NCBI GenBank assembly: GCA_964472345.1
Contig: CAYYLB010000005.1
Location: 1 to 38,938 of the forward strand
Reading direction: 5' to 3'
DNA: 38,938 nucleotides
DNA from: an uncultured Methanosarcinales archaeon
GTDB lineage: Archaea > Nanobdellota > Nanobdellia > Woesearchaeales > JAGLXL01
In this document: positions 7,590-38,938 of the stretch, piece by piece
Layout: each line of letters opens with the position of its first letter
Position numbering within the stretch: position 1 is the first letter of the stretch
Notes under the pieces: model-generated
The model's database searches: none
What the model was told of the DNA's origin: nothing
Seen by the model: only the letters and a program-made list of their open reading frames with translations
Position numbers and translations under genes: made by a program

Positions 7590-7632
7590 GCTGCCGCATC
7601 CAGGCATGACAAAGAAACCGGAGGTACCTGCC

Positions 7633-8145
7633 ATGCTCCATCGTCTTTTGCACGCGGTTGAAACGCTCATACCTTTACGGACTGTTTCTGCACATTGCGA
7701 CATTCCCTGCGGCATCTACGACCCGCATCTCGCGCAGCTCGCGGCGCACACCGTCGTGCGGATGGTGCAGCTGATCAACGAGCTGCCCAAGCCTGGGGCT
7801 GACGCGACAGGCCAGCAGCGGCAGGAGTTTGTCCACAAGATGGCACGCGCCACGGCGACGAAAGACGAGCATGCCGAGCTGGTGAAGCATGAGGTGCGCA
7901 TCATCTGGGGCGACTTCTTCAAGCCGGAGCACCTGAAGCAGTTCCCGGAGCTGCACGAGCTTGTCTGGCAGATCATGAAGCTTGCGTCAAAGGCGCGGCA
8001 GGAAACGGGCATGGAGCCCGCGCAGGAATTGCTGGCGAATGTGCAGCGGTTCGCGGAGATCTTCTGGAAGGCGAAGGGGATCGAGCCAGTGCGCGCCAAG
8101 GCCCCCTATCCGGGCGGCGGCGAGCTGGTGCTGCCAAGACCATGA
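7633..8145 (+). CDS. sodN: nickel superoxide dismutase precursor
   Basis: Ni-hook HCDIPCGIYDP after a prosequence, plus IWGDFFK. GGAGGT SD precedes ATG 7633 (alternative start 7606). Confidence 0.95.
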   Translation: MLHRLLHAVETLIPLRTVSAHCDIPCGIYDPHLAQLAAHTVVRMVQLINELPKPGADATGQQRQEFVHKMARATATKDEHAELVKHEVRIIWGDFFKPEHLKQFPELHELVWQIMKLASKARQETGMEPAQELLANVQRFAEIFWKAKGIEPVRAKAPYPGGGELVLPRP

Positions 8146-17341: not shown

Positions 17342-19258
17342 ATGAACTACAAAGGCCTTACCTTGGACAGGTTCCAGGAGCAGGCGATCGCGGCCATCGA
17401 GAACCAGCATTCTGTCGTCGTTTCCGCTCCCACGGGCTCCGGCAAGACCCTTATCGCGGATTACATCATCAACCGGGACGTTGAGCGCGGCATCCGGGTG
17501 ATCTACACGGCACCCATCAAGGCGCTGTCGAACCAGAAGTACCATGAGTTCACGCGCGATTACGGCACGGAGCGTGTCGGGCTGCTGACGGGGGACATCG
17601 TCAAGAATCCCGGCGCCCCGGTGCTCATCATGACCACGGAAATCTACCGCAACATGGCGATCACCCACGACCCCATGCTCGATCAGGTTTCCTATGTCAT
17701 CTTTGACGAGATCCATTTCATCAACGACATCGAGCGCGGCTACGTCTGGGAAGAATCGATCATCTTCTCAAAACCTGAGGTGCGGTTTCTCTGCCTGAGC
17801 GCGACGATTCCCAATGCCGACGAGTTTGCGGAGTGGATCCATTCGATCAAGCAGCACCGCGTCGAGGTCATCCGCCACGACACGCGCGAGATTCCGCTGC
17901 ACCGCGCCTTGTACGACGCCGAGCTCGGCATCACGACGCCCGAAAAGATCCGCGACGTGATCGACATTCCCGATCATGCCTACGTCCGCGGCACATCCCA
18001 TCGCAGGCGTCCGCGCGTGCCCGCCCCCTCACCCGTCGAACTGATCAAGGAGATCCGCGACAAGCTGCCCTGCTTCTTTTTCACCTTTTCCCGCCAGCGC
18101 TGCCAGCAGCATGCAGCCGACCTCCTGAAAGCGAAGCTCTTCGCGCACAACCCCAAGGTCGTCGGCCTCATCCATGAGAAGCTCGCAGGCGCAGCGCCGG
18201 AAATCAGGCAGCTCGCATCCACGCGCCTGCTGCGCGAGCTGCTTCCCTACGGCATCGGCTTCCATCACGCGGGCCTGATCCCCGTCATCAAAGAGCTTGT
18301 CGAGGAGCTCTTTGCCGCAGGATTCATCAATGTGCTCTACACGACAGAAACCTTCGCGGTCGGCATCAACATGCCCGCGAAGACGGTCTGCTTTGAGTCA
18401 TTGCGCAAGTTTGACGGCGCCAACTTCCGCTTTGTGCATGCCAAAGAGTATTTCCAGATCGCGGGAAGGGCGGGGCGCCGCGGCATTGACAAGGAAGGCT
18501 TCGCCTATGCCATGGTCGACCGCCGCGACTTCGATTATCACCAGCTCAAGAGGGTCACGGGCGCCGACAGGGAGCCCATCCGCTCCCAGTTCCGGCTGAG
18601 CGTGAATACCATCCTCAACCTCATCAAGCGCCACCCGCGGCAGGAGATCGAGGAGATCCTGCACAAGAACTTCTACACCTTCCAGCGCATGCGGCGCTTT
18701 CCCCAGCGCAAGACGCCGTTTTTCTACACGTTCACCAAGCTCACCAAAAAGCTCGAGCATATGGGCTACCTCGCAGGCAACATTCTCACCGAGAAAGGCG
18801 AATTCGCCTCAAAGATGTACGCTGACGAGCTGACCTTTACCGAGCTGTTCGCAACAGACTTCTACGCTGATCTGGATGAGTACCAGCTCCTGCTGCTGAT
18901 CGCGGCGCTGTGCTACGAAGGGCGCGAGAAGACCAAGTTCCATAAGACACACCCCTCCGACATGCTCCGCACGCTGCAGAAGAAGCTCGCTGCCCATCCG
19001 TTCCTGCAGCGCGAGAAGCGGTTTGAGGAGCTCGAGGCGCTCACCGCGCTGGTGGATCCATGCTACCGGGGCAGGAACATCTTCGCGATTTTGCCGAACA
19101 CTTCGCTGCTCGAAGGCGACGTGATCCGCCTGTTCCGGCAGATGATTGACCGGATCGGCCAGCTGAAAGGCGCGACGCAGGACGCGCGCCTCGCTGCGAT
19201 GCTGCAGAGCTGCAAGGAGATGATCGTTTCCTGCCTGGCGGAGATCGATGCGGTTTAA
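17342..19258 (+). CDS. Ski2/HelY-like SF2 RNA helicase
   Basis: APTGSGKT, PIKALSNQK, DEIH, LSAT, HHAGL, TETFAVGINMPA and QIAGRAGRRG motifs. Confidence 0.93.
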   Translation: MNYKGLTLDRFQEQAIAAIENQHSVVVSAPTGSGKTLIADYIINRDVERGIRVIYTAPIKALSNQKYHEFTRDYGTERVGLLTGDIVKNPGAPVLIMTTEIYRNMAITHDPMLDQVSYVIFDEIHFINDIERGYVWEESIIFSKPEVRFLCLSATIPNADEFAEWIHSIKQHRVEVIRHDTREIPLHRALYDAELGITTPEKIRDVIDIPDHAYVRGTSHRRRPRVPAPSPVELIKEIRDKLPCFFFTFSRQRCQQHAADLLKAKLFAHNPKVVGLIHEKLAGAAPEIRQLASTRLLRELLPYGIGFHHAGLIPVIKELVEELFAAGFINVLYTTETFAVGINMPAKTVCFESLRKFDGANFRFVHAKEYFQIAGRAGRRGIDKEGFAYAMVDRRDFDYHQLKRVTGADREPIRSQFRLSVNTILNLIKRHPRQEIEEILHKNFYTFQRMRRFPQRKTPFFYTFTKLTKKLEHMGYLAGNILTEKGEFASKMYADELTFTELFATDFYADLDEYQLLLLIAALCYEGREKTKFHKTHPSDMLRTLQKKLAAHPFLQREKRFEELEALTALVDPCYRGRNIFAILPNTSLLEGDVIRLFRQMIDRIGQLKGATQDARLAAMLQSCKEMIVSCLAEIDAV

Positions 19259-19842
19259 GTGCGATCCCTGAAAACCAGATCAATCACGCACGCCACGGGG
19301 ATCAGGAGCCTGCGATGCTCCTCGGGGATGGTCGCTTCGATGCGGACTGCGTAGGTGTCCGCAGTGGTGAACAGCTCCCGGGCAGCACCCGCCCACTTCT
19401 TGCTGATGTCCACCAGCTTTTTGCCGCCGCCTGACATGATTGCAAAATGCCATCCGGCGAAGCTGCCTTCCATCGTCGCGAGCTGCGCGCCGCCCGGATC
19501 GAGCACCAGCAGTTTTGGCTTGCTGAGCCGGAATTTCTGCCGGTAGGTTCCGAGCGTCTTCCCGCTGGCGTCGAGCACGGCCACATGCGACATGAAGAAC
19601 GTGAACGGCCGCCTGAGCGTCACCAGCTTCGTTCCGCCGGCGTCGTACAGTGAAACGGTGAACGGGAGCATGTTTTTGTATTTCGTCATCCTGAAAAACT
19701 TCTGCAGGAAACTGATGCCCTCTTCGCGCGCCTCGCCGAGCTTCTTGCCCTGCGGCGTGAAGAACTCGTACACGTTGCCGAACTTGAGCACGCGCACCTG
19801 CTCCTTGACGATGATTTCCTCGGCATCGAAAAGGAATGTCAT
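19255..19842 (-). CDS. LURP-one/scramblase (tubby C-terminal-like) family protein
   Basis: Repeated beta-strand pattern; ISKKWAG..RELFT.ADTY motif. Confidence 0.8.
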   Translation of the reverse strand: MTFLFDAEEIIVKEQVRVLKFGNVYEFFTPQGKKLGEAREEGISFLQKFFRMTKYKNMLPFTVSLYDAGGTKLVTLRRPFTFFMSHVAVLDASGKTLGTYRQKFRLSKPKLLVLDPGGAQLATMEGSFAGWHFAIMSGGGKKLVDISKKWAGAARELFTTADTYAVRIEATIPEEHRRLLIPVACVIDLVFRDRT

Positions 19843-24450: not shown

Positions 24451-24873
24451 ATGAAGCAAAGTAAGTTGATCCTGCCACAGGAACTGGAGGTCTGGTACGT
24501 GCTTCCTGCCATCCGGAAGGCATTCGCGTTGGCGATGGTAGCCTCGGGCTTGACGCAGAAGGAGGCAGCTGCGCTTCTCGGCGTGACGGAAGCGGCGGTC
24601 TCGCAGTACAAGAAGGAGAAGCGGGCCGCGGGGCTCGTGCTGGACGCGCATGCCGCTGCGCTCGTCAGGGAAGCGGTGGAGCGGATCGCCACAAGGCAAA
24701 GCACGGCGTTTGCGGAAATCATGCGCATTGATGACGAGCTCAAGCGCTCAGGCATCTTCTGCCAGCTCCACCGCCTCAAGTCGCAAACGCCGGACGGCTG
24801 CGAATCGAGCTGCGGCAGGCACTTCCTCAAGATGCGATCAAACCCAAAGCTCGCGGTGGTTTCTCATGGCTGA
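24451..24873 (+). CDS. HTH transcriptional regulator (archaeal COG2522-like) heading the suf operon
   Basis: [35 protein letters not shown] and C-terminal CQLH...C...C; overlaps the sufB start. Confidence 0.85.
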
Positions 24874-27800
24874 GCTTGCCGAGCTTGGGCTGGATATTGA
24901 CCGCGAGCGCTTTGACCACAAGAATCCGGTGCGCTTCGCGCTCACCGCCGGAAAAGGGCTCACGCGGGCGACGGTCGAACTCATCTCGAAGGAAAAGAAT
25001 GAGCCGGAATGGATGCTCCGCAAGCGGCTGAAGGCATTGGAGCACTTCAGCAAGACACCGGTTCCGCGCTGGGGGCCCGACCTGAGCAGGCTGGACCTGA
25101 ACGACATCACCTACTACGCCAAGCCCGATGCGAAGACGAACGCGGCGAGCTGGAGCGAGGTGCCGGAGCAGATCAAGAGGACCTTCGAGAGGCTCGGCAT
25201 CCCCGAAGCGGAGCGGAAGTCGCTTGCCGGCGCGGGAACACAGTATGAATGCATAACTGGTGATTCGACACTATTTACGAATCCGCGCGGGCCTGCGCAG
25301 ATAAAAGATATAACCCCCGGTATGCATATATTCGCACTTGACGAAGCAACTGGAACAATAACCCAAGCCAGGGTTATCGGCGTGAAGTGCAGCGGCAAAA
25401 AGGAGGTCTACGAAATAACCACTAAAAAAAGAAAGATTAAAGCATCAAAAAACCATCCTTTCTTTACATTATCCTACGAAAGAAAACCCGGAAAGAGGCG
25501 TGGAATATACAAAAAAATATGGAAACCGCTTGAGAATCTTAAAGAAGGCGATCTTATTGCTGTCGCAAGAAAGTACCCTGATGTTGGGGAATCGGTAACT
25601 CTACCTAAAGTAACATTGCGAGAGAATGTTATTGGAAGCAATCAGTTCGGCGTGAAATACAATTTAAGCATAAAACATCTCTATAACCAAGTAAATATTC
25701 CTGAAAGATCAAATGAAGATCTCATGTGGTTCTTCGGGATGTATGTTGGGGATGGGTGGATACACCGAAACGCAAAGAAACCTAAAGCAGCGGTGGAGAT
25801 CGCAACACCAGAAGAACAGAAAGATTTACGTGAGGAACTTATACGTGTCGTAACAATTTTATTTGGAGAAAATTTGATTGGGCAGAAACGGGACAGGATA
25901 ATCATCTACTCCACAATAATCGCAAAGTTTATTGAAATGTGTGGATTTACAGGCAAAGCGTTAACAAAAGTTTTACCGGACTGGGTTTATCAACTTCCGC
26001 TTTCGGAACGCCTTGCATTCATCGCGGGCTATCTTGATTCAGACGGGTATGTTAGGGACCATCCAAAAAACCATGATATTGTCTTCACAAGCGGGAACAA
26101 AAGTCTCTTAGAAAGCATAAGAAACCTCTGTATCTACTCAAATTTTGAGGTATCAAAGGTATCTCAGTTTACATCGAAGCATCCTTATGACAAAAATAGG
26201 CGGATTACTGCATATCGGATGAATGTGAGCGGGAATATAAGTCCGGTGCCCAGCAGGTACAAGTTCAAACGAGACCGTTTGAGACTCAAAAAGTATGCTC
26301 ACTCTTTCATAAGTGCAAAAGGAATGCCTGAGTTTGGGAAATATTGTACGGACTATCTTGGATTCTTAAAGATTCAGTCGATCCAAAAGGTGGGTGAAGA
26401 AGAAGTTTATGATATCGAAGTGGAAAATTACCATAATTTTATAGCAAATGGACTCGTTGTGCATAATTCAGAAGTCGTCTACCACAACCTGAAACAGGAG
26501 TGGGAGAAGAAAGGCGTCATCTTCGAGAATGCGGATGTCGCGCTGCAGAAATATCCGGAGCTCTTCGAGAAGTACTTCATGACGCGCTGCGTGCCCATCA
26601 CCGACCACAAGTTCGCCATGCTGCATGCTGCGGTCTGGAGCGGGGGAACGTTCATCTACGTCCCTCCCGGCGTGAAGGTGACGATGCCGCTGCAGGCATA
26701 TTTCCGCATGAACGCTCCGGGCCTCGNNNNNNNNNNGCCTCGGCCAGTTCGAGCACACGCTGATCATCGCAGACAAAGGAGCGGAAGTGAACTATGTCGA
26801 AGGGTGCAGTGCTCCGCGCTACAACGTCAACAACATCCACGCCGGCTGCGTCGAGATCTACGTGCATGAGGGCGCACGGGTGCGCTACAACAGCGTCGAG
26901 AACTGGAGCAAGAACACCTACAACCTGAACACGAAGCGCGCGATTGTCGAGGCCAACGGCACGATCGAATGGATCAACGGAAATATGGGCTGCCTTACGG
27001 GGGATTCTAAGATATTTACAAACCCGCGAGGCCCAATAAAAATAAAAGATATTGATGAAGGCGATCACGTTTATGTATGGGATGAGTCAAGTCATTTAAT
27101 TAAAAAATCGATCGTCAAAAATAAAATTTTCAGCGGAAATAAAACTGTTTACACTCTTGAGGCGGGGGGCCGTTCGATAGAGGCGAGTGGCAATCACCCA
27201 TTTTTAACGCTTCAAAGAATAAAAAAACATCCTGCTCATAAAAAGTCATTCTTTGCTTATAAATGGCAGCCTCTCGAAAACTTGAATGTTGGTGATGTTG
27301 TGGCTATTACCAAGCAGCTTCCATTGGAAGGAAGGCCCTATGCTTTACCGGGAATAACTCAAGGGAAAATTGTTGAAAGCAAAAATCAATATTCTAGATT
27401 TACTATGAGCACTTCCTATCTTTACAATGACATCGCCCTGCCCGCTGAGACGAATGAAGATTTTATGTGGCTGGCTGGTTTACTCATCGGTGATGGACAT
27501 GTTGATGTTACCCAAAATAAAATCAATCTTGCGGTGCACGAAAGAGATGATTATCGTGAATATATCTGTTCGCTTCTCAAGAAAGAGTTTAACTATACAG
27601 TAACTGAAAAGAAAGAGCGCTATATCATCATAAACTCAAAAGTATTATGCGAACTTTTTACTGCCTTAGGAATAGCAGGAACTGCGGATACAAAACGGGT
27701 CCCTCTTTGGGTTTTTACGCTACCACGTACGCAAATACTCTCTTTCTTAGCAGGCTACTTTGATGCGGATGGCCATGTTGAGAGAGGTGGTGTCTACCTT

Positions 27801-28715
27801 ACTAGTGTAAGCAGAAACCTGCTTGAGGGTGTCTACGATCTTGCGCTGAGTGTCGGCTTCGGCGTATCAAGAATATTTCGTCATGGCCATGCTCGCCGAA
27901 TAGATATACTTGGAAATAAGTGTAATGCAAAAGATTCTTGGAGGTTATTGCTGAATGGTAAACTGGTGAAGGAGCTTCCTTCCCGTAGCAGCCACAAGCG
28001 CAATAAACTGGAAAAAAGTAAAACAAAACGAAATTTTGTTTCGGCGCGTGGGTTGAATTTTAGAAGCAAGGTGAATGAGTATATCGGCTTTGCGACTGTG
28101 CAAAAAATACAAGAAACGGGCATAAAGCCTACCTATGATATTGAAGTTAGTGGTACACATAATTTTGTAGCGAATGGGTTCCTCGTCCACAACAGCAACG
28201 TGACCATGCTCTATCCGTGCAGCGTGCTCAAGGGCGCCGGCGCGCGCTCCGATTTCCTCGGCATTGCGTTTGCCGGCGACGGCCAGAACCAGGACACCGG
28301 CGCGAAGGTCTTCCATCTTGCGCCGAACACGACGAGCGTCACGCGCAGCAAGAGCATCAGCAAGGACGGCGGCATCAACACCTTCCGCGGGCTGCTGAAG
28401 GTTGTGAAGGGCGCGAGCAGCTGCAAGGCGACGGTGCAGTGCGATGCGCTGCTGCTCGACGAGGCGTCGAAGTCGCACACCATCCCGACGATGGAGATCC
28501 AGGACTCGACGGCGGACATCGCGCACGAGGCGACCGTGGGCAAGATCGGGCAGGAGCAGCTCTTCTACCTCATGTCGCGCGGGCTGAAGGAGGAGGAGGC
28601 GATGAAGCTGATCGTCTGTGGCTTTGTCGAGCCCATCGTGAAGGCGCTGCCGCTTGAGTACGCCGTTGAGCTCAACCGGCTGATCCAGCTCGAGATGGAC
28701 AATGCGATCGGGTGA
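24866..28715 (+). CDS. sufB: Fe-S assembly protein SufB with two inteins (apparent frameshift at N gap 26727-26736)
   Basis: Exteins: [86 protein letters not shown] and [13 protein letters not shown]. Confidence 0.95.
25250..26467 (+). mobile_element. intein 1 in SufB (406 aa) with LAGLIDADG homing endonuclease
   Basis: Starts CITGDS, block B ASKNHPF, LAGLIDADG-like FGMYVGDG and IAGYLDSDG, ends [13 protein letters not shown]. Sharp switch to AT-rich sequence. Confidence 0.95.
26991..28193 (+). mobile_element. intein 2 in SufB (401 aa) with LAGLIDADG homing endonuclease
   Basis: Starts CLTGDS, block [17 protein letters not shown] and LAGYFDADG, ends [15 protein letters not shown]-rich. Confidence 0.95.
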
Positions 28716-29941
28716 ATCTTATGCTTCTCCTGAAAAGCCCGGTGATTGAAGCGCTCAGCTCCCGTCTGCAGGAGCCCGCATGGCTGAAAATGAAGCGCGA
28801 GGGGGCGTTCGAGGCATTCCAGCAGCTCCCATTGCCGAACTTCCGCTACGGCATCACGGCGCGGATGGATTACAGCGATCTTCCGCAGGAGCTTCTTGAT
28901 CCACCGGATTCCATCGCGGACGTTCCGCAGCCTTCCGCTGCATTTCAGGCGCCTCCTGGCGTCGTTGAGGAGCATCCGGGCGTCTTTGTCGGCCCGCTGC
29001 AGGAGTTCGCGAAGAGGCAGCCTGCTCTTGCCGAAGCATCATTCATGCGCCTTTTCAACCCAGTGATAAGCAAGATCGAGGCATTCCACGCGGCATTCTG
29101 GGCGGGCTCCGTCGTTATTTTCGTGCCAAAGGGGGCAGCCATCCATGATCCGCTGGCGCTCAGAAGTGCGCAGCAATCGCCGCAGGCAGCGCAGCACACC
29201 CTCATCATCGCCGAAGAAGGGAGCAGCGTCATGATAACGGAGCACCTGCAGTCAGCCGGCCGGCAGCCAGCGCTCGCAAGCACCGTCACCGAGGCGTTTG
29301 TCGCGCGGGGCGCACGGGTGCGCTTTGTCCGCGTCCAGGACTATGCGCGCGGCGCCTTCCACTTCGATGAGAAGGTCGCGCACGTCGCGGGGGATGGGCG
29401 CATGGAGTGGAGCGACATCTTTCTGGGAGGCGCATTCACGCACAGCGAGACGAGCAGCATCCTCGCCGGCGACGGCAGCTCATGCAGCGCGAGCAGCCTC
29501 TTCTTCGGCGACGGGGAGCAGCGCTTTGACCTTGCCACGAGCGCTATCCATGAAGGGAAGCACACGCACAGCCGCATCACGGGCCGCGGCGTGCTGAACG
29601 GCAGGGCAAAGAACATCTCCCGCAGCTTAATTCGCATAGGTAAAGGCGCGGTTGGCAGCAACGGCTTTGAGAAGCAGGACACGCTGTCGCTCAGCCCATT
29701 TGCGGAAGCAGACAACATCCCGAAGCTTGAGATCGACAACAATGATGTGAAGTGCGGCCATGCGGCGACGGTCGGGCAGGTTGACCGGGAGAAGCTCTTC
29801 TACCTCATGGCGCGCGGCCTGTCTGAAGAAGCAGCGAGAAAGCTGCTGGTGTCCGGGTTCTTCGAGCCGCTGCTTGCGGTGCTCCCGCCACCGCTTGCGG
29901 ATGCGGTCCGGGCACAGGTCGAGGCGAGGCTGCCATGCTGA
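28712..29941 (+). CDS. sufD: Fe-S assembly protein SufD
   Basis: Beta-helix paralogue of SufB with PKLEIDNNDVKCGHAATVG and LFYLMARG. Confidence 0.93.
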   Translation: MNLMLLLKSPVIEALSSRLQEPAWLKMKREGAFEAFQQLPLPNFRYGITARMDYSDLPQELLDPPDSIADVPQPSAAFQAPPGVVEEHPGVFVGPLQEFAKRQPALAEASFMRLFNPVISKIEAFHAAFWAGSVVIFVPKGAAIHDPLALRSAQQSPQAAQHTLIIAEEGSSVMITEHLQSAGRQPALASTVTEAFVARGARVRFVRVQDYARGAFHFDEKVAHVAGDGRMEWSDIFLGGAFTHSETSSILAGDGSSCSASSLFFGDGEQRFDLATSAIHEGKHTHSRITGRGVLNGRAKNISRSLIRIGKGAVGSNGFEKQDTLSLSPFAEADNIPKLEIDNNDVKCGHAATVGQVDREKLFYLMARGLSEEAARKLLVSGFFEPLLAVLPPPLADAVRAQVEARLPC

Positions 29942-31167
29942 CGCTCCGCACGCTCGATGCCGCGGCGATCAGGAGTGACTTCCCCATTTTCGCGAACGCC
30001 GGCAACGGCAGGCCGCTCGTCTACCTCGACAGCGCATCGACCGCGCAGAAGCCCCGGCAGGTCCTTGACGCGATGCAGCAGTACTATGAGCAGCGGAACG
30101 CGAACGTCCACCGCGGCGTCTATCAGCTCAGCGAACTCGCGACCGAGCAGTACGAATCAGCGCGCGAGCGGGTTGCCGCATTCGTCCATGCGATGCCGCA
30201 GGAGACCATCTTCACGGGCAATGCGACGCAGGCCATCAATGCGGTCGCTTACTCGTACGGATTGCGGAACCTCACCGCAGGGGATAATGTCGTGCTGAGC
30301 GTCATGGAGCACCACAGCAATTTCGTGCCGTGGCAGCAGCTGTGCGCGCTGCGGGGCGCGGAGCTCCGTGTCGCCGGCATTGACGACGCAGGCAACCTGG
30401 ACATCGGGCAGATCAGGCAGCTTGTTGACCGGAGGACGAGGATGGTCGCCGTCAGCCAGATGTCCAACGTGCTCGGCACGCTCAATGACGTGCGCGCCAT
30501 CGCCGACATAGCGCATGAGAAGGGGAGCGTGCTGCTCGTTGACGGCGCGCAGTCGGTGCCGCACCTGCCGGTGGATGCCCGGAAGCTCGGATGTGATTTT
30601 CTCGCTTTCTCGGGGCACAAGATGCTCGGGCCCATGGGCATCGGCGTTCTCTACGGGAAGCATGAGCTGCTGCATGCGATGGAGCCCTTCCTCTTCGGCG
30701 GCGGCATGATCCATCAGGTGACAGTGCAGAAGACAAGCTGGGCAGCGCTGCCGTGGAAGTTCGAGGCGGGCACGCCGAATGTCGCGGGCGCCGTCGGATT
30801 GGCAGCGGCAGTTGACTATCTCACCAGGTTCGGCATGGATGCGGTCTGGGAGCACGGGCAGCAGCTGCTCCGCGCCGCGACGAAGAGGCTTTCCGGGATC
30901 AGCGGCCTTAGATTGTATGGGACTGCACCTCGCAAGGGAGGCATCCTGAGCTTCACGCTCGACGGCATCCATCCGCATGACCTTGCGACCGTTGCCGCCA
31001 GCAGGAACGTCTGCATACGGGCAGGCCACCACTGCTGCCAGCCGCTGATGGAGCGCCTCGGCGTCGCGGCGACGGCACGCGCGAGCTTCTACCTCTACAA
31101 TGATGCGAAGGACATCGACGCGCTCGCGGAAGCGGTTGAGGAGGCGAAGAAGGTGTTTGCACGATGA
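29935..31167 (+). CDS. sufS: cysteine desulfurase SufS
   Basis: YLDSASTAQKP, MEHHSN, DGAQ, SGHKM, FEAGT and RAGHHC motifs. Confidence 0.97.
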   Translation: MLTLRTLDAAAIRSDFPIFANAGNGRPLVYLDSASTAQKPRQVLDAMQQYYEQRNANVHRGVYQLSELATEQYESARERVAAFVHAMPQETIFTGNATQAINAVAYSYGLRNLTAGDNVVLSVMEHHSNFVPWQQLCALRGAELRVAGIDDAGNLDIGQIRQLVDRRTRMVAVSQMSNVLGTLNDVRAIADIAHEKGSVLLVDGAQSVPHLPVDARKLGCDFLAFSGHKMLGPMGIGVLYGKHELLHAMEPFLFGGGMIHQVTVQKTSWAALPWKFEAGTPNVAGAVGLAAAVDYLTRFGMDAVWEHGQQLLRAATKRLSGISGLRLYGTAPRKGGILSFTLDGIHPHDLATVAASRNVCIRAGHHCCQPLMERLGVAATARASFYLYNDAKDIDALAEAVEEAKKVFAR

Positions 31168-31931
31168 CAGATGGTGGCAGGATCGGTGTGGAGTTTGTCT
31201 GCACGGGAAACAACGGGCGAAGCCCGCTCTGCGAAGTGGTTGCGCGCGCTCGTGTAGATACAAAATACCCGGACCTTTCTCAGCGCGTCGTCATCTCGTC
31301 GAGCGGGATTGATGTCCTGCGCAAGGTTGATTGGACCACGAGAACGTTTGAGTATTGCGCTTGGTTCCTGGAGAAGGGAAATGGCTACCGGCAGGGCGTT
31401 CCGGAGTTTTATGCTCCAGAGCAGGCTGGGTTTGTTGACGCTTTCGTGCGCGGGAATAAGCAGGCAGGCGAGCAATTTAAGGCCGACCAGCTTTTTCGCG
31501 CAAGCGTTGTTTTGCTGGCTGAAGAAACACGAAGAAAGCTTGAGGCAATCGAAGCGGGAAACCGCAACGCTTACTTACGGCAGAATGGGCTGCCTGATCC
31601 TGGAGCGCCGAAGCCTTTTGAGCCAAGGGAGGGCGTTCACTATGTCATCGGAATGGAACCACGGCATGCTGCTGTCGCCAGCGCCGCATACGCTGAACGG
31701 GCGGGCGCAGGACGAACGGGAAGAGGCGACGGAAAGGCAGCCCAGCACATCGCGACCATCGCGGATTTTGTCGGAGAACCTGAAGCCGTTGTTTCGGGCG
31801 CATTCGGAAGCGCGGACCCGCAAAAGTACCGAGCGCTCTACGGCACGCTCGCCGGCCTCAGCAGAAGGGCCATTGACAGGATCGTTCGTGAGATGCAAGA
31901 GCATGCGGATAAGGGACGAGGTTATGCATGA
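31164..31931 (+). CDS. low-molecular-weight protein tyrosine phosphatase/ArsC-fold protein
   Basis: P-loop FVCTGNNGRS (CX5R), SSSG, VIGME..H and C-terminal DP; large central insertion; ATGA-coupled on both sides. Confidence 0.75.
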   Translation: MTDGGRIGVEFVCTGNNGRSPLCEVVARARVDTKYPDLSQRVVISSSGIDVLRKVDWTTRTFEYCAWFLEKGNGYRQGVPEFYAPEQAGFVDAFVRGNKQAGEQFKADQLFRASVVLLAEETRRKLEAIEAGNRNAYLRQNGLPDPGAPKPFEPREGVHYVIGMEPRHAAVASAAYAERAGAGRTGRGDGKAAQHIATIADFVGEPEAVVSGAFGSADPQKYRALYGTLAGLSRRAIDRIVREMQEHADKGRGYA

Positions 31932-33097
31932 TGACGGACGCAGATGAGGGAATGTTCGCCAAAGAATGGCACGCAGCAGATGCCCACCTGCTCTTCGCGG
32001 AGATACTCCACCGCGGGGATACCTCGCACATGCCCCGGCTTTTTGGATTTGCGTATGGCGGGCACCTGTTCACGCTGGAGGACGGAACAATCACATTCTT
32101 CAAGAACAAGGAAACGGAGAGGCGGGCTGCGGAGGCGGGAGCGCACAAATACAGGGACAGCACGTTTCCGCAGTTCCTTGGGGTGCATGTCGGGCGCATT
32201 GAGGCAAACATCAGGCAGACGCTCGACCTCATCGGGAAAGAAACGCTTCCGGCGCTCAGCAACCAGCAGCTGTGGCAGCTCCATGCGGCGTACGTCGAGC
32301 ACATGTCCGAGCTGTACGCCTGTTACCGCTTCACCCGCAAGGATTTTTATGCGCGCGTGATCGAGGATATCAAAGCGCAGCTCCCCGAGCCGAAAGAAGA
32401 GACGCTCAATACCCTGCTTCGGGGTGCGGCCGGTGTCCCGCTGCCTGCGCCTTTTGACTCCCTGATAGAGTCGCTCCGCACCGTCGGGAAGCTGCGCTGG
32501 CACATGCATAAGGTCTGGCTTGACTCGTTTGAGCGCGGAGAGCGCCTCTTCGAGGAAGTCGGGCGGCGCGTCGGGCTCAGCGCGAGAGAGGTGAAGCATT
32601 CATTGTCGGGGGAGGTGCAGGCGTACCTGCTTGAGGGCGCGCAGCCTGATAAGGTCATGCTCCAGAAGAGGATGTCGTATGCTGCAGTTGCCTACACTCC
32701 TGAGGGGTTCACCGTCACCACTGAACGTGTCGCGGTGCAGCAGAAGACCGCACCGGTGGATGAGGTGCAAGGGATGCCTGCCCATCCCGGCTGCGTCCGC
32801 GGGACGGTGCGCATCATCCGCGAGGCGCTCAGGAGCGTTGATGCTGTGGAGCTTTCACGCGTCAGGAAAGGGGACATCATCGTCACCAACATGACCTCAC
32901 CGGACATGATCCTCGCGATGGAGCGGGCGGCGGCATTCGTGACGAATGAGGGAGGAACACTCTGTCATGCAGCCGTTCTGGCACGAGAGATGGGAAAGCC
33001 ATGCATCGTAAGCACGCGCCACGCGACAGATGTCTTCAAGGATGGCGATCTTGTAGAAGTAGATGCCAATCAAGGGATTGTTAGGAAATTAGAATGA
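31928..33097 (+). CDS. stand-alone PEP-utiliser mobile (phospho-His) domain protein 1
   Basis: C-terminal G..A.PG...G, TNMTSPD, TNEGG..CHAAVLARE.GKP, F.DGD.VEVDA..G. Helical N-terminal region; no ATP-grasp domain. Confidence 0.88.
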   Translation: MMTDADEGMFAKEWHAADAHLLFAEILHRGDTSHMPRLFGFAYGGHLFTLEDGTITFFKNKETERRAAEAGAHKYRDSTFPQFLGVHVGRIEANIRQTLDLIGKETLPALSNQQLWQLHAAYVEHMSELYACYRFTRKDFYARVIEDIKAQLPEPKEETLNTLLRGAAGVPLPAPFDSLIESLRTVGKLRWHMHKVWLDSFERGERLFEEVGRRVGLSAREVKHSLSGEVQAYLLEGAQPDKVMLQKRMSYAAVAYTPEGFTVTTERVAVQQKTAPVDEVQGMPAHPGCVRGTVRIIREALRSVDAVELSRVRKGDIIVTNMTSPDMILAMERAAAFVTNEGGTLCHAAVLAREMGKPCIVSTRHATDVFKDGDLVEVDANQGIVRKLE

Positions 33098-34533
33098 AAC
33101 GCTACCAACTCGCATGGGCAGAAGAACAGCCATTGTTGAAGCTGAGCCTTAACACAGAACGCTACAGGACGCATCGGCATATTGTTGGTAACGTTCTCGA
33201 CGACGCACTCATTTGGGGAACAGGAACATATATTGAAAGCTATTTTAATAGTACCGACGTGAAAAAAAAAGTCAACAAAGACGGTGAAAAATTTCTTACG
33301 AAAGAGATTGCAGAAAATACCCTGCAAGAGATTGACGCAACGGCAAAGAACTTTTGGATTGCAGTAAAAAATATCAGAGAACAAGCAAAGAAAAAACTAA
33401 CGGCCGAACAACTCATAAAACTATTTGACCAGCTTGTTGCCGTCTCAAGGGAGGTATATGCTTACTTTATGTGTTCACGTGAAGAAGTTATGCATGCAGT
33501 AGAAACAAGACTGGCAGCATTACTCAGGCAAAAGTTCCCAGCGACTTATCAAGATGCGCTTATAACTTTAACGACGCCAACAGAAGCTGATGTTCTCTAT
33601 AACGAAAAAAAAGATTGGATGAATGTTATTCCCAACCCGACAGAGGAAGTGATACAACAACATATTGAGAAGTACCCATTGCTCTTGTACAACATTACTT
33701 CTGAAGAAAAGGCGATTGAGCTGATGAAAAACAAAGCGCAAAAACAAAAAACTGATGAATTACAGGCAGAGCTCCGGGAGAACAAAGAAAAACGCCGACA
33801 GCTAAAAGAAAAACAAGAACAGCTTTTCAAAGAGATGGGGTCAGAAGAAATTGAACGACTGGCTGGGTTCATTAGACAGATGGCCCTTGGTAGGCTTAAA
33901 CTTAAGGAGTGTTGGGGTGGAACAAGCTATTACCTCTTAGACTTCTTCCGCCAGCTTGCAGAGAAAGCGGGTTTTTCCACATATGATGTCATGAATTTCT
34001 ACACAAGAGAGGACATGGAAAATCTTGTTAAACACGGAAAAAATATTTCAAAGGAGGAGTTAGAAAAGAGAAAGCAGAATTATTTGCTTCACTACCTCAA
34101 CGGAAAGCTCTGCCTCTACTCAGGAGAAGAAGCGCGCCGCATGAAAAAAGAACTCCTTGACGGCAGTTTGCCCAAGCAGGATACTACATCATTTAAGGGA
34201 ATGATCGCCAACACAGGAAAGGTTACTGGGCGTGTAAAGTTGGTTAAAGTAGTCGATATGGAGGAACTAAACAAAATAGCAAAAACACTTTCAAAGGATG
34301 AACATATCCTGGTTACGGGAATGACAAACCCAACTATGGTGATATTGCTTGACAAAGTTAAAGGCATCATCACAGACGAAGGCGGTTTGGCCTGTCATGC
34401 GGCCATTGTTTCACGCGAATTCGGCGTGCCTTGTTTAGTCGGATGTAAAATTGCAACGCAGGTCCTAAAAGATGATGACTTAATAGAGCTCGACGCAACG
34501 AACGGCATCGTCCGGAAGGTGAGCACTCCATGA
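33094..34533 (+). CDS. stand-alone PEP-utiliser mobile domain protein 2 (AT-rich)
   Basis: TGMTNP, TDEGGLACHAAIVSREFGVP and IELDATNG motifs. Confidence 0.88.
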   Translation: MKRYQLAWAEEQPLLKLSLNTERYRTHRHIVGNVLDDALIWGTGTYIESYFNSTDVKKKVNKDGEKFLTKEIAENTLQEIDATAKNFWIAVKNIREQAKKKLTAEQLIKLFDQLVAVSREVYAYFMCSREEVMHAVETRLAALLRQKFPATYQDALITLTTPTEADVLYNEKKDWMNVIPNPTEEVIQQHIEKYPLLLYNITSEEKAIELMKNKAQKQKTDELQAELRENKEKRRQLKEKQEQLFKEMGSEEIERLAGFIRQMALGRLKLKECWGGTSYYLLDFFRQLAEKAGFSTYDVMNFYTREDMENLVKHGKNISKEELEKRKQNYLLHYLNGKLCLYSGEEARRMKKELLDGSLPKQDTTSFKGMIANTGKVTGRVKLVKVVDMEELNKIAKTLSKDEHILVTGMTNPTMVILLDKVKGIITDEGGLACHAAIVSREFGVPCLVGCKIATQVLKDDDLIELDATNGIVRKVSTP

Positions 34534-34958
34534 GCGAGGCGGCATTCGACGGCATCGATCTCGGCCAGATGTACCGCGAGCACCTGCTGGACCACTACCG
34601 GAACCCGCGCAACCAGGGCACGCTTGCGGATGCGGAGCATTTCCACGACCTCAACCCGCTCTGTGGCGATGAGATCGAGATGTTCGTGCGCTTCCGTGAC
34701 GGGCTGCTTGAGGACATCCGCTTCCGCGGCAAGGGCTGCGCCGTCTCGCAGGCGAGCGCATCGCTCCTGACGGAAGCAGTGAAAGGGAAGAGCCGCGGTG
34801 CGATCGAGGCCATGGACCGCGAAAAGATGCAGGAGCTGGTCGGCATTCAGGTGACGCCGGCGCGCGCCAGGTGCATGATGCTGCCATTGAGCGTGCTCAA
34901 GACCATCACCTACCTGCACGAAGGGAAATGTCAGGAGGGGCAGGAGCCATGGAACTGA
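34530..34958 (+). CDS. sufU: SufU/IscU-like scaffold or sulfur-transfer protein
   Basis: YRE.LLDHYRNPRN.G, NPLCGD, GCAVSQASAS and RARC motifs. Confidence 0.93.
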   Translation: MSEAAFDGIDLGQMYREHLLDHYRNPRNQGTLADAEHFHDLNPLCGDEIEMFVRFRDGLLEDIRFRGKGCAVSQASASLLTEAVKGKSRGAIEAMDREKMQELVGIQVTPARARCMMLPLSVLKTITYLHEGKCQEGQEPWN

Positions 34959-35710
34959 GGATCACGGATGCGCACGTCGCCGTTGCGGGGCAGGAGATCG
35001 TGAAAGGCGTCTCGCTGTCCGTCGCACAGGGAGAGATTGTGGTCATCATGGGCCCCAACGGATCCGGCAAGAGCACCCTCGCAAACGCGCTCATGGGGCA
35101 TCCTGCGTACACCATCACGGGCGGCAGCATCCTGCTCGACGGTGATGAGATTGCCGCGATGAAGCCGCACCAGAGGGCGCAGCGGGGCCTTTTCCTGAGC
35201 TTCCAGTATCCGAGCGAAATTTCCGGCGTCACCATCAGCAGCTTCCTGCGCACGGCGCTGAAGGAGCTCAAAGGGGCGAGCATGCCCATCCCTGACTTTA
35301 TGAAGCTGCTCAGGGAGAAGATGGCCTGGCTGAAGATGGATTCTGCCTTTGCCGGCCGCTATCTCAACGAGGGCTTTTCCGGCGGCGAGAAGAAGCGCTG
35401 CGAGATCCTGCAGCTCGCGGTTCTGGAGCCGAAGATCGCGCTGCTCGATGAGACCGATTCCGGCCTTGATGTCGATGCGCTGAAGGTCGTTGCGCAGGCG
35501 GTCGAGCAGCTTGTCAGAGAAAAGAACATGGGCGCGCTTGTCGTGACGCATTACCAGCGCCTGCTGCACTATCTAAAGCCGGACCGGGTGCTGGTGATGG
35601 TGGGCGGGAAGATCGTGAAGAGCGGCGGGGCGGAGCTTGCGAAAGAGATTGAGGAGAAAGGGTATGAGTGGGTGAAGGGCGAGGCACTGCCGAAAGAGGA
35701 GGCCCAATGA
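34949..35710 (+). CDS. sufC: Fe-S assembly ABC ATPase SufC
   Basis: MGPNGSGKST, FQYP, NEGFSGGEKKR, LDETDSGLD and THYQR motifs. Confidence 0.97.
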   Translation: MELRITDAHVAVAGQEIVKGVSLSVAQGEIVVIMGPNGSGKSTLANALMGHPAYTITGGSILLDGDEIAAMKPHQRAQRGLFLSFQYPSEISGVTISSFLRTALKELKGASMPIPDFMKLLREKMAWLKMDSAFAGRYLNEGFSGGEKKRCEILQLAVLEPKIALLDETDSGLDVDALKVVAQAVEQLVREKNMGALVVTHYQRLLHYLKPDRVLVMVGGKIVKSGGAELAKEIEEKGYEWVKGEALPKEEAQ

Positions 35711-36741
35711 AACCCGGGAAGGACTGGGTGCATTACCTCAGCCGGCCGTTCGGCATCTTCGGGGCGTCACTGTGGGTGGTGTGGTACGATTCTCCGTCCA
35801 CGAAAGAGCTGTTTGGGGTGACAATGCCCGACTGCCTCTGCATCGAGGAGCACCCCGGTGTTGTGAGGAGATACGCGATCAGGGAGCAGCTTGAGCGGTT
35901 CACCGGTGCGGTCAGGCAGGTCGTTGCCAGGCAGCCGGAACGGTGCAGGAAGATTCTTGAGGCTGGCGTTGAGCTGAACCGGCAGGCGGAGCGGCTGCTG
36001 AAGCAAGATCGCACGATAGAGCTGCAGGCCGCAGTGGATTTTATGGTCCGCCTGACGCTGCACGCGACGATATTCCCCTATTTCGGCTATGAAGCCCTCC
36101 ACGGGCGGAGCACGGATGCCGATGGGCTCCTGAAGCTGGCAGAGGGGCTGCGCGCCGTTTCATTCTATCCGCGCATCATCAGCGACGTTGTCCTGCGCTC
36201 GGCGAAAGCCCGCGCCGGCGATGCGGCTGACGTGCTGCTGCTGTCGGAGGTGCTCGCGGGAGACACGTCAAACGCCGCAGCACGCGGGGGGATGCAACGG
36301 CAGAGTAAGCGGTTCGTCTATCAGCGGCTTGACGGCAAGGAAACGGTTGAATGGGTTGATGATGCGCTTGCATTTATCTGGCAGCTTGAGGGGTTTGATG
36401 CGGCGCAGGAGGTTCGAGGCTCTTGCGCGTGCACGGGAAAAGTCCGGGGCGTTGTGCGGCTTGTCCACATGGCAAATCCCGAAATGCCGTTCAGCAAGGG
36501 GGACATCGTGATCGCGGCAACGCTCAGCCCCACGCTCCTTCCCCTGCTCTCCCGGTGCGGTGCAATCGTGACTGATGAGGGCGGCATGACCTCCCATGCA
36601 GCGATCCTCAGCCGTGAGCTCAACAAGCCGTGCGTGATCGGCACGAAGCATGCGACGCACGTTTTCAGGGACGGCGACCTGGTCGAAGTGGACGCAGAAA
36701 AAGGGGTTGTAAAGAAATTGTTACATCTTAATAGTGGTTAA
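35707..36741 (+). CDS. stand-alone PEP-utiliser mobile domain protein 3
   Basis: TDEGGMTSHAAILSRELNKP and FRDGDLVEVDAEKG motifs; ATG overlaps the sufC stop (ATGA). Confidence 0.88.
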   Translation: MKPGKDWVHYLSRPFGIFGASLWVVWYDSPSTKELFGVTMPDCLCIEEHPGVVRRYAIREQLERFTGAVRQVVARQPERCRKILEAGVELNRQAERLLKQDRTIELQAAVDFMVRLTLHATIFPYFGYEALHGRSTDADGLLKLAEGLRAVSFYPRIISDVVLRSAKARAGDAADVLLLSEVLAGDTSNAAARGGMQRQSKRFVYQRLDGKETVEWVDDALAFIWQLEGFDAAQEVRGSCACTGKVRGVVRLVHMANPEMPFSKGDIVIAATLSPTLLPLLSRCGAIVTDEGGMTSHAAILSRELNKPCVIGTKHATHVFRDGDLVEVDAEKGVVKKLLHLNSG

Positions 36742-36794
36742 AAATAGAAATGTTTATAAAGAGGAGATTCCTCGAATGGTGTGGTGATGCAAGA

Positions 36795-37634
36795 ATGGGG
36801 AAAATTTATGTTGTTTTAGCAAGACACGAGAAGAAGGAAAAGTTAGAACCGAAGCCAACACCTGGCGGAGAGCAAGATCGTACGCTTGTTGGGCTAAGTG
36901 AAGCCGGACACGCAGATGCCTTTGCTTCAGGTCAACGAGAACTTGGCGGTAAATCAATAGATAGGGCGGTGGTTGTCCATTCAGGATTCTTACGAACTGA
37001 ACAAACAGCGGAAAAGTGGTTGCGTGGTGCTGGAGTTATGGATGATCTCTACGGGGATGCGGACAGATACCAAGTTGTAGCTGATAGTGCGATTAGCCTA
37101 GCCGGAACAATCTGGGATCCGGAATGCTTCCCCCCATTTGGTGATAAACAGGAGGTTCTCAATGTGTATGTTGAGCATGCCTTAGCCAACCACTACCTTG
37201 CGCAAGCAGACGATCCTAATAATGCTGCCCGACTTCCGATACTGGCAAGAAAAGCCGTCGCTGTCTTGGAAAACCTCGTTCGCGGCGCAGAACGTCTCTC
37301 AAGAACAATCCAGGGAAGGGAAAATGGACTTGTCATTCAGGTGACGCATGGCCCGATTGTTGACGCAGCGGCTATGGCATTCAATGGGGGGATAAACCTC
37401 GAACAGCTTCCAGACTCCAGCTACGGGGTAGCTCAACTATTGCCATTCGTCGCACATCGCGAAGGCGAGTATGTTGTTGGAGTCATTAATGTCCAAGAGC
37501 GCCAGCCTATAGATGATGCCGTGCTCGCGCTGAACATCAAAGGAACGCAACATGAACGTCCCATGGAAATTGTCAGGCGAGACATTGAAAGACTGAAGTA
37601 TATGGCGTTTGGTGGTGTTCAGCGCCATAGCTAA
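36795..37634 (+). CDS. histidine phosphatase superfamily protein
   Basis: VVLARH, LSEAG...A, S...RTEQTA and VTHG motifs. Own TATA box (36753-36760) and GGTGA SD. Confidence 0.7.
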   Translation: MGKIYVVLARHEKKEKLEPKPTPGGEQDRTLVGLSEAGHADAFASGQRELGGKSIDRAVVVHSGFLRTEQTAEKWLRGAGVMDDLYGDADRYQVVADSAISLAGTIWDPECFPPFGDKQEVLNVYVEHALANHYLAQADDPNNAARLPILARKAVAVLENLVRGAERLSRTIQGRENGLVIQVTHGPIVDAAAMAFNGGINLEQLPDSSYGVAQLLPFVAHREGEYVVGVINVQERQPIDDAVLALNIKGTQHERPMEIVRRDIERLKYMAFGGVQRHS

Positions 37635-37683
37635 TTCACCAGAACCCGCAGGGATTGTTTGGAGTGAAGCAGGTGGTGGGGTC

Positions 37684-38938
37684 GTGATTGATTGGGATGC
37701 GGTGCGGAAGGTTGACTGGGAAGCGGCAGTCAATAGGCCAGAATCTCCACTGTGGCAATCATATTCTGATGAAGGTCACACTCTACATTTCAGCGAAGCG
37801 ACAGGGCTGCCGTGGGACGCAGAGGTTATCGCCTTCGTCCGCGGTGATGTCTGCTTTTCAGGGAAAAAGCTCGAAGAGCTCCGCAACCTGCTTAAGGAAA
37901 GTCACAACAAAAATCGTGAATTCTTCGCAATGTTTGCCGCGCGCTGCCTGGCGTATTGCACGAAACTCAATGAGGTGGCTGCACAACTCGCAAGGAAGGA
38001 GTACGCGAATGCCCCGTTGGAGGACATCAAGAATGACTTTGCCCTCTTCGATGCTGTTGCGCCAAGACTTTTTTCATTCCTGCTTCCTATGCCTATCGCC
38101 GATGGCGTCTTGTCTGAATTGGTGCGAGAGCGTATCGCAGCAGCGCTTCCTGACAAGTGGCAGAATGATGGTGAAGAGGTCCTCAGGGTAGTGACCTATC
38201 CGGTGAAGGAAAACACCCACACTGCCGAGAGGCTTGGAATGCTCTCTCTTGCCAGGAAGATACGAGAGTGGGGCCTTGAAGAGGGCTGGGAGCGCAACAC
38301 CCGGGTACGCGACGAGCTGGAAAACCACCTGAAGCGCTATGGCTGGATCGGGACGCGGCACTGGTGGTTCCACCGGCCATGGACCGTGGGTGACCTTACC
38401 GGGAGGATCCGGACCCTGCTCAAGAAGGATGCAAACGAGCAAATCCGGCACATCAAAAAGTTACGGGTGGAGAACGAAGAGAATGCTGCGCAGCTGATGA
38501 GTGCGCTGCGGAGTGCTGCAGCCTCTGATTTTGAGCGTATCGTCTCAATCGCAAAAGAATTCGCGTGGCTGCGCACCTACCGGACGGATGTGCTCCATTC
38601 TTCCGGATTCAATGCACGGCACCTCTTTTTCCGGATTGCGGAGCTGATGGGACTCAACCATAAGGATGTGACCTACCTTGGCTCATACGAGATCCGCGCA
38701 TTTCTCGAGGAGGGAAGGACGGCGGTCACCCGCATGGTCATTGATGAGCGACGGAATGGTGCCGAAACACTCCGTCTTGGCCAGCCGCTGATTGTGAGCG
38801 GAAAAGAGCGCGAAAGGCTGCTCTCGATTATGGACAAGAAGCTGAAGCAGGAGCTTCCTGCCGTTGTGAGGGGCACTCCAGCGTTCCACGGGAAATCCGT
38901 TGGTCGCGCAAGAATAGTGCAAAACCAGTTCCAGCTCG
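37684..38938 (+). CDS. PEP-utiliser mobile domain protein 4, 3'-truncated by the window edge
   Basis: Missing from the ORF track because it has no stop. Open frame from GTG 37684 (VIDWDAVRKVDWE...) through WLRTYRTD to VRGTPAFHGKSVGRARIV, the start of the mobile domain seen in paralogues 1-3. Confidence 0.75.
   Translation, partial: MIDWDAVRKVDWEAAVNRPESPLWQSYSDEGHTLHFSEATGLPWDAEVIAFVRGDVCFSGKKLEELRNLLKESHNKNREFFAMFAARCLAYCTKLNEVAAQLARKEYANAPLEDIKNDFALFDAVAPRLFSFLLPMPIADGVLSELVRERIAAALPDKWQNDGEEVLRVVTYPVKENTHTAERLGMLSLARKIREWGLEEGWERNTRVRDELENHLKRYGWIGTRHWWFHRPWTVGDLTGRIRTLLKKDANEQIRHIKKLRVENEENAAQLMSALRSAAASDFERIVSIAKEFAWLRTYRTDVLHSSGFNARHLFFRIAELMGLNHKDVTYLGSYEIRAFLEEGRTAVTRMVIDERRNGAETLRLGQPLIVSGKERERLLSIMDKKLKQELPAVVRGTPAFHGKSVGRARIVQNQFQL

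Follow-up and report, generated by a model that had tools for sequence, protein, structure and literature searches.

The question raised by the stretch of DNA analysed here, a window of 38.9 kb that is the entire contig C5 of a DPANN-type archaeal genome assembled to 1.26 Mb in 120 contigs, is why an iron-sulfur (Fe-S) assembly operon of the suf type should carry four genes for proteins with a phosphohistidine swivel domain, denoted PEPm1 to PEPm4, together with two phosphatase-like genes. The PEPm proteins are acceptor subunits of a dikinase of the rifampicin phosphotransferase (RPH) type, each consisting of a helical domain similar to the rifampicin-binding (RIF-binding) domain of RPH and a swivel domain, and lacking an ATP-grasp domain. 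The balance of probability slightly favours a broader reading, in which these RPH-type acceptor modules are passengers in the suf operon, are paired with phosphatases, and are charged by an ATP-grasp domain in trans, likeliest that of phosphoenolpyruvate (PEP) synthase.

The Pfam profile PEP-utilizers (PF00391) matches the C-termini of PEPm1, PEPm2 and PEPm3 with E-values of 1e-24 to 1e-25, and these proteins carry the swivel motifs TNEGGTLCHAA, TDEGGLACHAA and TDEGGMTSHAA. The N-terminal regions of the paralogues are divergent (18-31% mutual identity). Such a combination of divergent N-terminal regions with a conserved His domain had been described in an earlier note on this DNA, and the suggestion made there that the N-terminal regions are substrate-binding modules is borne out by homology to the RIF-binding domain in phmmer, Foldseek, VIA and hhalign comparisons. 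Residues 190-474 of PEPm2 match residues 598-864 of the Listeria RPH (5fbs) with a phmmer E-value of 2.4e-15. An AlphaFold (AF2) model of PEPm2, obtained from a 58-row module alignment built around this protein (A2), has a predicted local distance difference test score (pLDDT) of 96.7; in a Foldseek search with this model, the entries of RPH-Lm were the only whole-length matches (E 7.5e-14, template modelling (TM) score 0.57), and pyruvate phosphate dikinase (PPDK), enzyme I and pyruvate kinase matched at the swivel alone (TM ~0.2). In VIA-align, residues 1-477 of the model superimpose on RPH residues 327-867 with a Z score of 18.2 over 405-417 residues (root-mean-square deviation 5.0) and 17% identity; identity to RPH is 15-17% overall. 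Given that PEPm2 matches the RIF-binding and swivel domains of RPH over its whole length, the PEPm proteins are therefore acceptor subunits of split small-molecule dikinases.

Residues 10-389 of PEPm1 match the A2 profile (hhalign E 4e-43), without the central helical insert. PEPm4, which has no Pfam domain inside the window, matches A2 over residues 72-439 (hhalign probability 97.8%), its last residues aligning to the start of the swivel. The hhalign match of PEPm3 to A2 is restricted to residues 195-339; its N-domain has one orthologue, in the related genome G007 (37% identity), and the protein atlas gave weak leads only for its N-terminus, among them one cluster in which 21% of the members carry the Pfam domain 'Rph_4th' (score 0.90). 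GGxx(S/C)HAA is kept in all 11 complete modules of the genome, the catalytic histidine (H435) is invariant in 58 of the 58 rows of A2, and in this alignment R326 is invariant and R267, a basic residue of the N-domain, and K271 are nearly so. In RPH, phosphotransfer is attributed to Arg666, Glu667 and Lys670 in the available part of the published account (PMC4844700). Decayed fragments of PEP synthase with relaxed selection on the catalytic histidine, the alternative named in the earlier note, are rejected by the whole-length match of PEPm2 to the RIF-binding and swivel domains and by the invariance of this residue. None of the curated NCBIfam models reaches its cut-off on the PEPm proteins, the best scores being 81-82 bits for the PRK08296 series (cut-offs 578-730), 59-64 bits for RIF_Ptrans_rph (cut-off 999) and 93-107 bits for the PEP synthase models (cut-off 598). 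A word-based homologue search with the N-domain of PEPm2 returned only PEPm2 itself, and public records label such proteins 'hypothetical' or 'PEP-utilising enzyme mobile domain-containing protein'.

[quoted passage not shown]

24650..28715, plus strand: sufB with two LAGLIDADG inteins (Pfam SUFBD_core, Intein_splicing, LAGLIDADG_3)
28712..29941, plus strand: sufD (Pfam SUFBD_core, E 4.8e-74)
29935..31167, plus strand: sufS, cysteine desulfurase (Pfam Aminotran_5, E 4.9e-146)
31164..31931, plus strand: LMW-PTP-like (LMWP-like) protein, 255 aa (Pfam LMWPc, 27.9 bits; P-loop CTGNNGRS; long insert)
31928..33097, plus strand: PEPm1, short acceptor module, 389 aa (Pfam PEP-utilizers at 313-383; hhalign match to A2)
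33094..34533, plus strand: PEPm2, full acceptor module, 479 aa (phmmer, Foldseek and VIA matches to RPH)
34530..34958, plus strand: sufU, scaffold (Pfam NifU_N, E 3e-22)
34949..35710, plus strand: sufC, ATPase (Pfam ABC_tran; ATG at 34949; 67-69% identity to SufC of the related genomes G002 and G005)
35707..36741, plus strand: PEPm3, 344 aa (Pfam PEP-utilizers; swivel and last part of the N-domain recognised)
36750..37634, plus strand: histidine-phosphatase-superfamily protein, 294 aa (RHE motif; Pfam His_Phos_1, 21.3 bits)
37609..38938, plus strand, continuing past the contig end: PEPm4, a fourth module represented by its N-domain (hhalign match to A2; start codon uncertain)

All five genes sufB, sufD, sufS, sufU and sufC are recognised by Pfam, co-directional and in one cluster, and their orthologues in relatives have the same order and 41-93% identity. 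Four-base ATGA overlaps join sufS to the LMWP-like gene, this gene to PEPm1, PEPm1 to PEPm2, PEPm2 to sufU, and sufC to PEPm3; the overlap of sufU and sufC is 10 bases. The gene order and overlapping stop and start codons reported in the earlier note are thereby confirmed, and comparison of the window with Logan contigs from four public groundwater runs of one study adds independent support: every junction is bridged by independently assembled contigs from the four runs at even depth, which rules out an assembly chimera. A contig from run X1 (4918 bases) covers positions 30490-35407, from sufS into sufC, with 0 differences, and read depth is even across the low-G+C (guanine plus cytosine) PEPm2 gene. 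Beyond position 38938, a public contig continues for 146 bases and then resembles the part of PEPm3 that encodes the swivel, so that PEPm4 reads as a complete module truncated where the contig stops. The sufB gene reads as two overlapping open reading frames (ORFs) because of a run of 10 N at 26727-26736, where the tblastn alignment of SufB from G005 changes frame; a genuine frameshift was rejected as an artefact of this gap, the N run having been read directly. The sufB inteins are absent from the relatives G005 and G007 (470-477 aa), and sufB of G002 is longer (862 aa). Elsewhere in the window, the genes at 7606-8145 and 19255-19842 encode a nickel superoxide dismutase (Sod_Ni, E 9e-45) and a member of the scramblase family.

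Into an otherwise ordinary sufBDSUC operon, two groups of three genes have been inserted, one between sufS and sufU and one after sufC; these insertions are lineage-specific and in part of horizontal origin. In all four genomes of the same family that have a suf-type operon (G002, G003, G005, G007), sufS and sufU are adjacent and there is no insert. The G+C content of the genome is 0.57; that of PEPm2 is 0.42, with flanking genes at 0.59-0.63, three sister modules of ~480 aa are at 0.31-0.35, the histidine-phosphatase-like gene is at 0.49, and the first percentile of the 1-kb windows of the genome lies at 0.34. The best database relative of PEPm2 is a 'hypothetical protein' of Taylorbacteria, a lineage of the candidate phyla radiation (CPR), with 46% identity. 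In a FastTree phylogeny of 75 modules, which has to be read with care because its branches are long, there is no well-supported clade of the paralogues of this genome alone; instead, these pair with modules of CPR bacteria and of other DPANN archaea: PEPm2 with the module that follows the LMWP-like gene of G003 (support 98), C8b with a module of Nanoarchaeia (100), and C43 with a module of Nealsonbacteria (98). The sequences around the starts and stops of the 13 modules of the genome show no evident boundary cassette or shared repeat. The six inserted genes read as translationally coupled passengers with predicted read-through expression, and the suf position of the modules is most likely incidental.

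A link of these genes to Fe-S assembly had been suggested in the earlier note, and in its strongest form the cluster would be a functional unit in which SUF needs the modules, for example to act on a sulfur or cofactor intermediate. The junctions from sufS to PEPm3 are all translationally coupled, as such a unit would have it, and similar arrangements occur elsewhere: the metagenome contig L102, with a SufS 93% identical to that of the window, has an LMWP-like gene after sufS, and a module in G004 (contig C3, L028:7198-11789) overlaps the start of a nifS-HAD-iscU cluster that is conserved in G006 (contig C6, L029). Nevertheless, the link is not conserved within the family, where sufS-sufU is unbroken in each of the four genomes, the G+C content of PEPm2 is foreign and the other 9 modules of the genome are found in unrelated contexts, all of which makes a dedicated Fe-S unit very unlikely.

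An exhaustive search with PEPm2 gave 19,438 matches at E <=1e-3 and 651 at 1e-30, and the best relatives of the modules are encoded in DPANN archaea and CPR bacteria. Eighteen of the 24 long relatives scanned combine one PPDK_N domain with 1-6 swivel modules; the remaining six are module-only tandems or other fusions. In 27 named CPR and DPANN loci, modules form arrays of up to 8 or more genes, with an ATP-grasp domain fused or nearby in 8 of these loci. One ATP-grasp serving many modules is the rule of this family, and the donor in trans postulated in the earlier note agrees with this rule, ATP-grasp domains being found elsewhere both fused and stand-alone, with HpeHI as the studied case. Giant multi-module proteins occur as well, among them a woesearchaeotal ORF of 3761 aa with one ATP-grasp and 8 swivels (L049:2374-13659), proteins of 1994 and over 2568 aa (L062; L076:4201-10185), and a 2815-aa open frame with 5 swivels in G015 (contig C7). 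The available parts of the published descriptions give module arrays passing automatic labels only, namely 'rph' counts listed in CPR genomes (PMC8651080) and the label 'phenylphosphate synthase' in DPANN metagenome-assembled genomes (PMC8091004); PMC8421398 is without relevant mention of them.

The lineage of the window departs from the family rule in having no dedicated ATP-grasp for its modules. The genome contains 14 matches to PF00391, which comprise one PEP synthase, 11 complete modules (on contigs C5, C8, C28, C43, C56 and C82) and two on C13, a degenerate module and a bare swivel of 137 aa; with PEPm4 included, the module count is 13, scattered singly or in pairs. Archaeal markers (CDC48, deoxyhypusine synthase, GatD and endonuclease dU) are present on the module-bearing contigs. 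PPDK_N and PEP-utilizers_C are absent from the window contig according to Pfam, in agreement with the earlier note, which had found no donor domain in these genes or in the window. The search of the genome for a stand-alone PPDK_N gene proposed there gave none: the single PPDK_N and the single PEP-utilizers_C of the genome both lie inside a complete PEP synthase of 774 aa on contig C2. A hidden Markov model built from the ATP-grasp domains of the fused members of the family recovered nothing else among 4889 ORFs, the next best match having an E-value of 0.5, and the PEP synthase regulatory protein (PF03618) was not found in the genome. Among 31 related genomes, including the unpublished G008, the number of swivel genes ranges from 0 to 14. 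For G003, G004 and G007 the counts of swivel genes are 12, 10 and 5, with PPDK_N occurring once in each genome, that of G004 being assembled in 4 contigs and 96% complete; G015 has a stand-alone ATP-grasp and G016 an ATP-grasp fused to three modules.

The proteins of contig C13 were considered as possible missing parts, and both a divergent ATP-grasp among them (hhalign probability 0.1%) and the protein C13_358 as a detached N-domain (0.7%) were rejected. C13_358 represents a family of ~355 aa encoded directly after a bare swivel gene (C13:8088-11856; L103:4079-6097; L105:2779-4884), for which there is no Pfam, profile or usable atlas match and which may represent a donor or acceptor domain of a type not yet recognised. 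The contexts of the other modules are diverse. In two genera, CDC48 has one or two modules directly behind it, at C8:8343-13774, where CDC48 contains an intein, and on contig C1 of G004 (L097:9412-12710); the dnaK region of C82 has inserted genes in the order DnaK-HD-methyltransferase-module-HAD; and on the minus strand of C28 (2069-10245) the order is GlmS-HAD-module-module-CofD-HAD-sugar nucleotidyltransferase-ThiE, a context that hints at sugar or cofactor chemistry for this module pair. Regulators of the TrmB family recur adjoining module loci.

Such a set of modules could consist of non-functional or selfish leftovers, stranded after the loss of their ATP-grasp partner and drifting to decay. 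The lack of this partner, the copy number of 0-14 among the relatives, the foreign G+C content and the very long branches are all features that leftovers would have. Decay, in contrast, is not what the genes themselves display, with the GGxx(S/C)HAA motif kept in every complete module, intact frames, coupled starts and a confident structural model; moreover, the modules remain orphans across four genera of the family and the pairing of LMWP-like proteins with swivels is conserved, so that decay is highly improbable.

By analogy with RPH and HpeHI, the swivel histidine of each module would receive ATP's beta-phosphate from an ATP-grasp domain acting in trans, and the charged swivel would then swing back to its own N-domain to phosphorylate a small molecule specific to that module. 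The available text on HpeHI reports that split ATP-grasp and acceptor subunits do work in trans (PMC12167813). The likeliest candidate for the charger is the ATP-grasp within the genome's one PEP synthase, since there is no dedicated ATP-grasp; of all the steps, this assignment commands the least confidence. The suf position would supply expression and would entail no role in Fe-S assembly.

The same lack of a donor would be explained if the orphan modules were ATP-independent phosphotransferases that pass phosphate from a metabolite to the swivel histidine and on to an acceptor, with the phosphatases completing kinase/phosphatase pairs. According to the same source (PMC12167813), HpeH by itself transferred phosphate from 4-phosphoacetophenone onto acetovanillone; searches of four related genomes yielded no dedicated ATP-grasp, and many modules occur as tandem pairs. 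The donor metabolite, however, cannot be named, and the fusion of an ATP-grasp to modules in 18 of the 24 long relatives argues that charging by ATP is ancestral and usual; an ATP-independent system is accordingly considered unlikely.

Phosphatase-type genes are recurrent partners of the modules, and this association, claimed in the earlier note for the window, is seen again in relatives and in metagenome contigs. In this genome, 4 of the 15 HAD, His_Phos_1 or LMWPc genes adjoin a module, compared to 0.2 expected (20,000 permutations, P ~1e-4), and the neighbours of the modules in G004 include LMWP, HAD, HAD-like and TPM-phosphatase genes. In the phosphatase-paired modules proposed here, the LMWP-like and histidine-phosphatase-like proteins would either strip the phosphohistidine of its phosphate or dephosphorylate the products.

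The LMWP-like gene is the sole LMWPc gene in the genome. Its match to the profile (27.9 bits versus a cut-off of 23.2) covers only positions 1-48 of 144, and a homologue on the metagenome contig L103 matches profile positions 67-142. In the P-loop, C13-T-G-N-N-G-R19-S20, residues C13, R19 and S20 are invariant in 4 homologues; position 5 is Asn in three of four LMWP-like sequences and Gly in the fourth, that is, neither Ile nor Thr, which at this position are characteristic of phosphotyrosine (pTyr) and phosphoarginine (pArg) enzymes, respectively, in the available part of the source (PMC7772506). The 'DP' of the D-loop is shifted in three of the four sequences, and the canonical Asp is not clearly aligned. 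The closest solved sequence relatives are the YwlE arginine phosphatases. A word-based search with the protein gave one close relative only, and an AF2 model from 4 sequences (pLDDT 50.5) is too low in confidence for use. Homologues are encoded in 3 of the 31 genomes, this one counted, and in every case a co-directional module follows immediately downstream of the gene. Two metagenome contigs show the order LMWPc, bare swivel of 114-118 aa, C13_358-like gene, with a TrmB regulator upstream, and a third (L104:2057-6386) has the order DnaK-LMWPc-HD-like-DnaJ with no swivel next. The swivel looks like the partner of the LMWP-like protein because a swivel-domain gene comes directly after the LMWP-like gene in 5 of 6 informative loci.

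The match of the second phosphatase-like protein to His_Phos_1 (21.3 bits) falls just below the cut-off of 21.7; a paralogue that is 54% identical scores 35.9 bits and is encoded one gene from a module pair on C8. In five sequences of this family R25 and H26 of the RHE motif and H200 are invariant, and the Arg of 'LRTxQTA' is present in four and replaced by Ile in the fifth. A phmmer search against PDB gave 0 matches at E <=1. SixA-type enzymes are phosphohistidine phosphatases, and an enzyme of the His_Phos_1 superfamily could dephosphorylate histidine. A search of the 30 other genomes gave homologues in G003 alone, where two copies on contig C58 (L096:153-3038) flank a 252-aa gene and adjoin a response-regulator receiver gene; no module is present on this 6-kb contig.

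The pairing of swivels with phosphatases also admits two different interpretations. In the first, the modules would be regulatory phosphocarriers directed at proteins such as SufS/SufU, CDC48 and DnaK, with the LMWP-like protein as a phosphohistidine (pHis) or pArg protein phosphatase, in signalling or quality control. The relationship of this protein to YwlE and the absence of Ile from position 5 of its P-loop fit this notion, as do the modules adjoining CDC48 and cysteine desulfurase genes in this genome and in G004, dnaK on C82, and the LMWPc-like gene between dnaK and dnaJ in L104; in addition, VadK is described as an autophosphorylating kinase derived from PPDK that binds metabolic enzymes (PMC13400623). 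The N-domain, by contrast, is the small-molecule-binding domain of RPH, the closest characterised relatives all phosphorylate small molecules, and the neighbours vary from locus to locus and from relative to relative, so that protein targets are quite unlikely. In the second, also improbable, an archaeal phosphorelay similar to the phosphotransferase system (PTS) would have PEP synthase as the shared charger and the LMWP-like protein as the next carrier, phosphate moving from His to the P-loop Cys as in PTS IIB, with C13_358 as a further donor or acceptor.

The preferred reading, in which acceptor modules paired with phosphatases are charged in trans by PEP synthase, is itself opposed by several points. 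Residues 1-194 of PEPm3 have no profile match in hhalign comparison with A2, and the register of the RPH residues Arg666/Glu667/Lys670 is tentative, phmmer placing R267 opposite Lys670. PEP synthase is no more than a candidate charger: its ATP-grasp normally serves its own tethered swivel, and the archaeal enzyme forms large multimers, with 24 chains in entry 8a8e. With the assembly in 120 contigs, a stand-alone ATP-grasp may have escaped assembly, but none is present in the 4-contig genome of G004 either. With regard to the phosphatases, the category used in the enrichment test was defined post hoc, the gene calls were approximate, and phosphohydrolases account for only 6 of 83 neighbours in a broad sample of CPR and DPANN. 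Finally, the G004 module that adjoins a cysteine desulfurase cluster calls for caution, as it leaves room for a link to sulfur or Fe-S chemistry.

The significance of these modules lies in the organisms that carry them. Although DPANN archaea and CPR bacteria are nearly devoid of a metabolism of their own, modules take up several per cent of their genes; in this genome ~13 of ~1370 genes are of this kind. The modules are exchanged between two domains of life. In databases they are listed under 'hypothetical' or 'PEP synthase', and in one DPANN study they are taken for phenol degradation. Their targets, be they host metabolites, antibiotics, sugars or proteins, bear on the life of ultra-small symbionts. 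In the lineage of the window, the missing of the usual ATP-grasp partner leaves one obvious donor candidate, the conserved phosphatase partners offer a second biochemical handle, and the insertion into suf illustrates how such genes are predicted to gain expression in a compact genome.

Comparison with characterised systems shows that the kind of system is a known one and not uncharacterised, as the earlier note had thought it might be, two-component RPH-like dikinases having been described; what is new is the orphan, dispersed, phosphatase-paired archaeal form and its insertion into suf. RPH-Lm (PDB 5FBS/5FBT/5FBU, 5HV1) has the same RIF-binding-like domain and C-terminal swivel with a T/SxxGGxxxH motif, but the modules have no ATP-grasp in the polypeptide and there is no evidence of antibiotic resistance. 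The swivel of the modules is 44-51% identical to that of the PEP synthase of the genome; unlike PEP synthase and PPDK, however, PEPm1-3 contain only PF00391, without PPDK_N and PEP-utilizers_C. Enzyme I of the PTS likewise uses a phosphohistidine swivel to pass phosphate to a separate partner, HPr, whereas the only PEP-binding domain of this genome lies in PEP synthase. The LMWP-like protein shares the CX5R(S) P-loop with the arginine phosphatases YwlE and DARP, position 5 being other than Ile in either, but it has Asn or Gly rather than Thr at this position and an insert of ~100 residues. The arrays of CPR and DPANN consist of the same module family, and the paralogues pair with array modules of Nealsonbacteria, Patescibacteria, Nanoarchaeia and Woesearchaeota; there the modules are tandem or fused, whereas here they are scattered, located in housekeeping operons, paired with phosphatases and devoid of an ATP-grasp. 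The split architecture is shared by the two-component small-molecule dikinases HpeHI, CreHI and PpsAB (phenylphosphate synthase), in which the RIF-binding-like domain and the swivel are on one protein (the acceptors HpeH, CreH and PpsA) and the ATP-grasp is on the other (PMC12167813). These systems comprise one acceptor of ~600 aa and one adjacent ATP-grasp gene, act on phenolic substrates and belong to catabolic operons, whereas the archaeon studied here has 13 dispersed acceptors of 344-480 aa, no dedicated ATP-grasp and a minimal metabolism.

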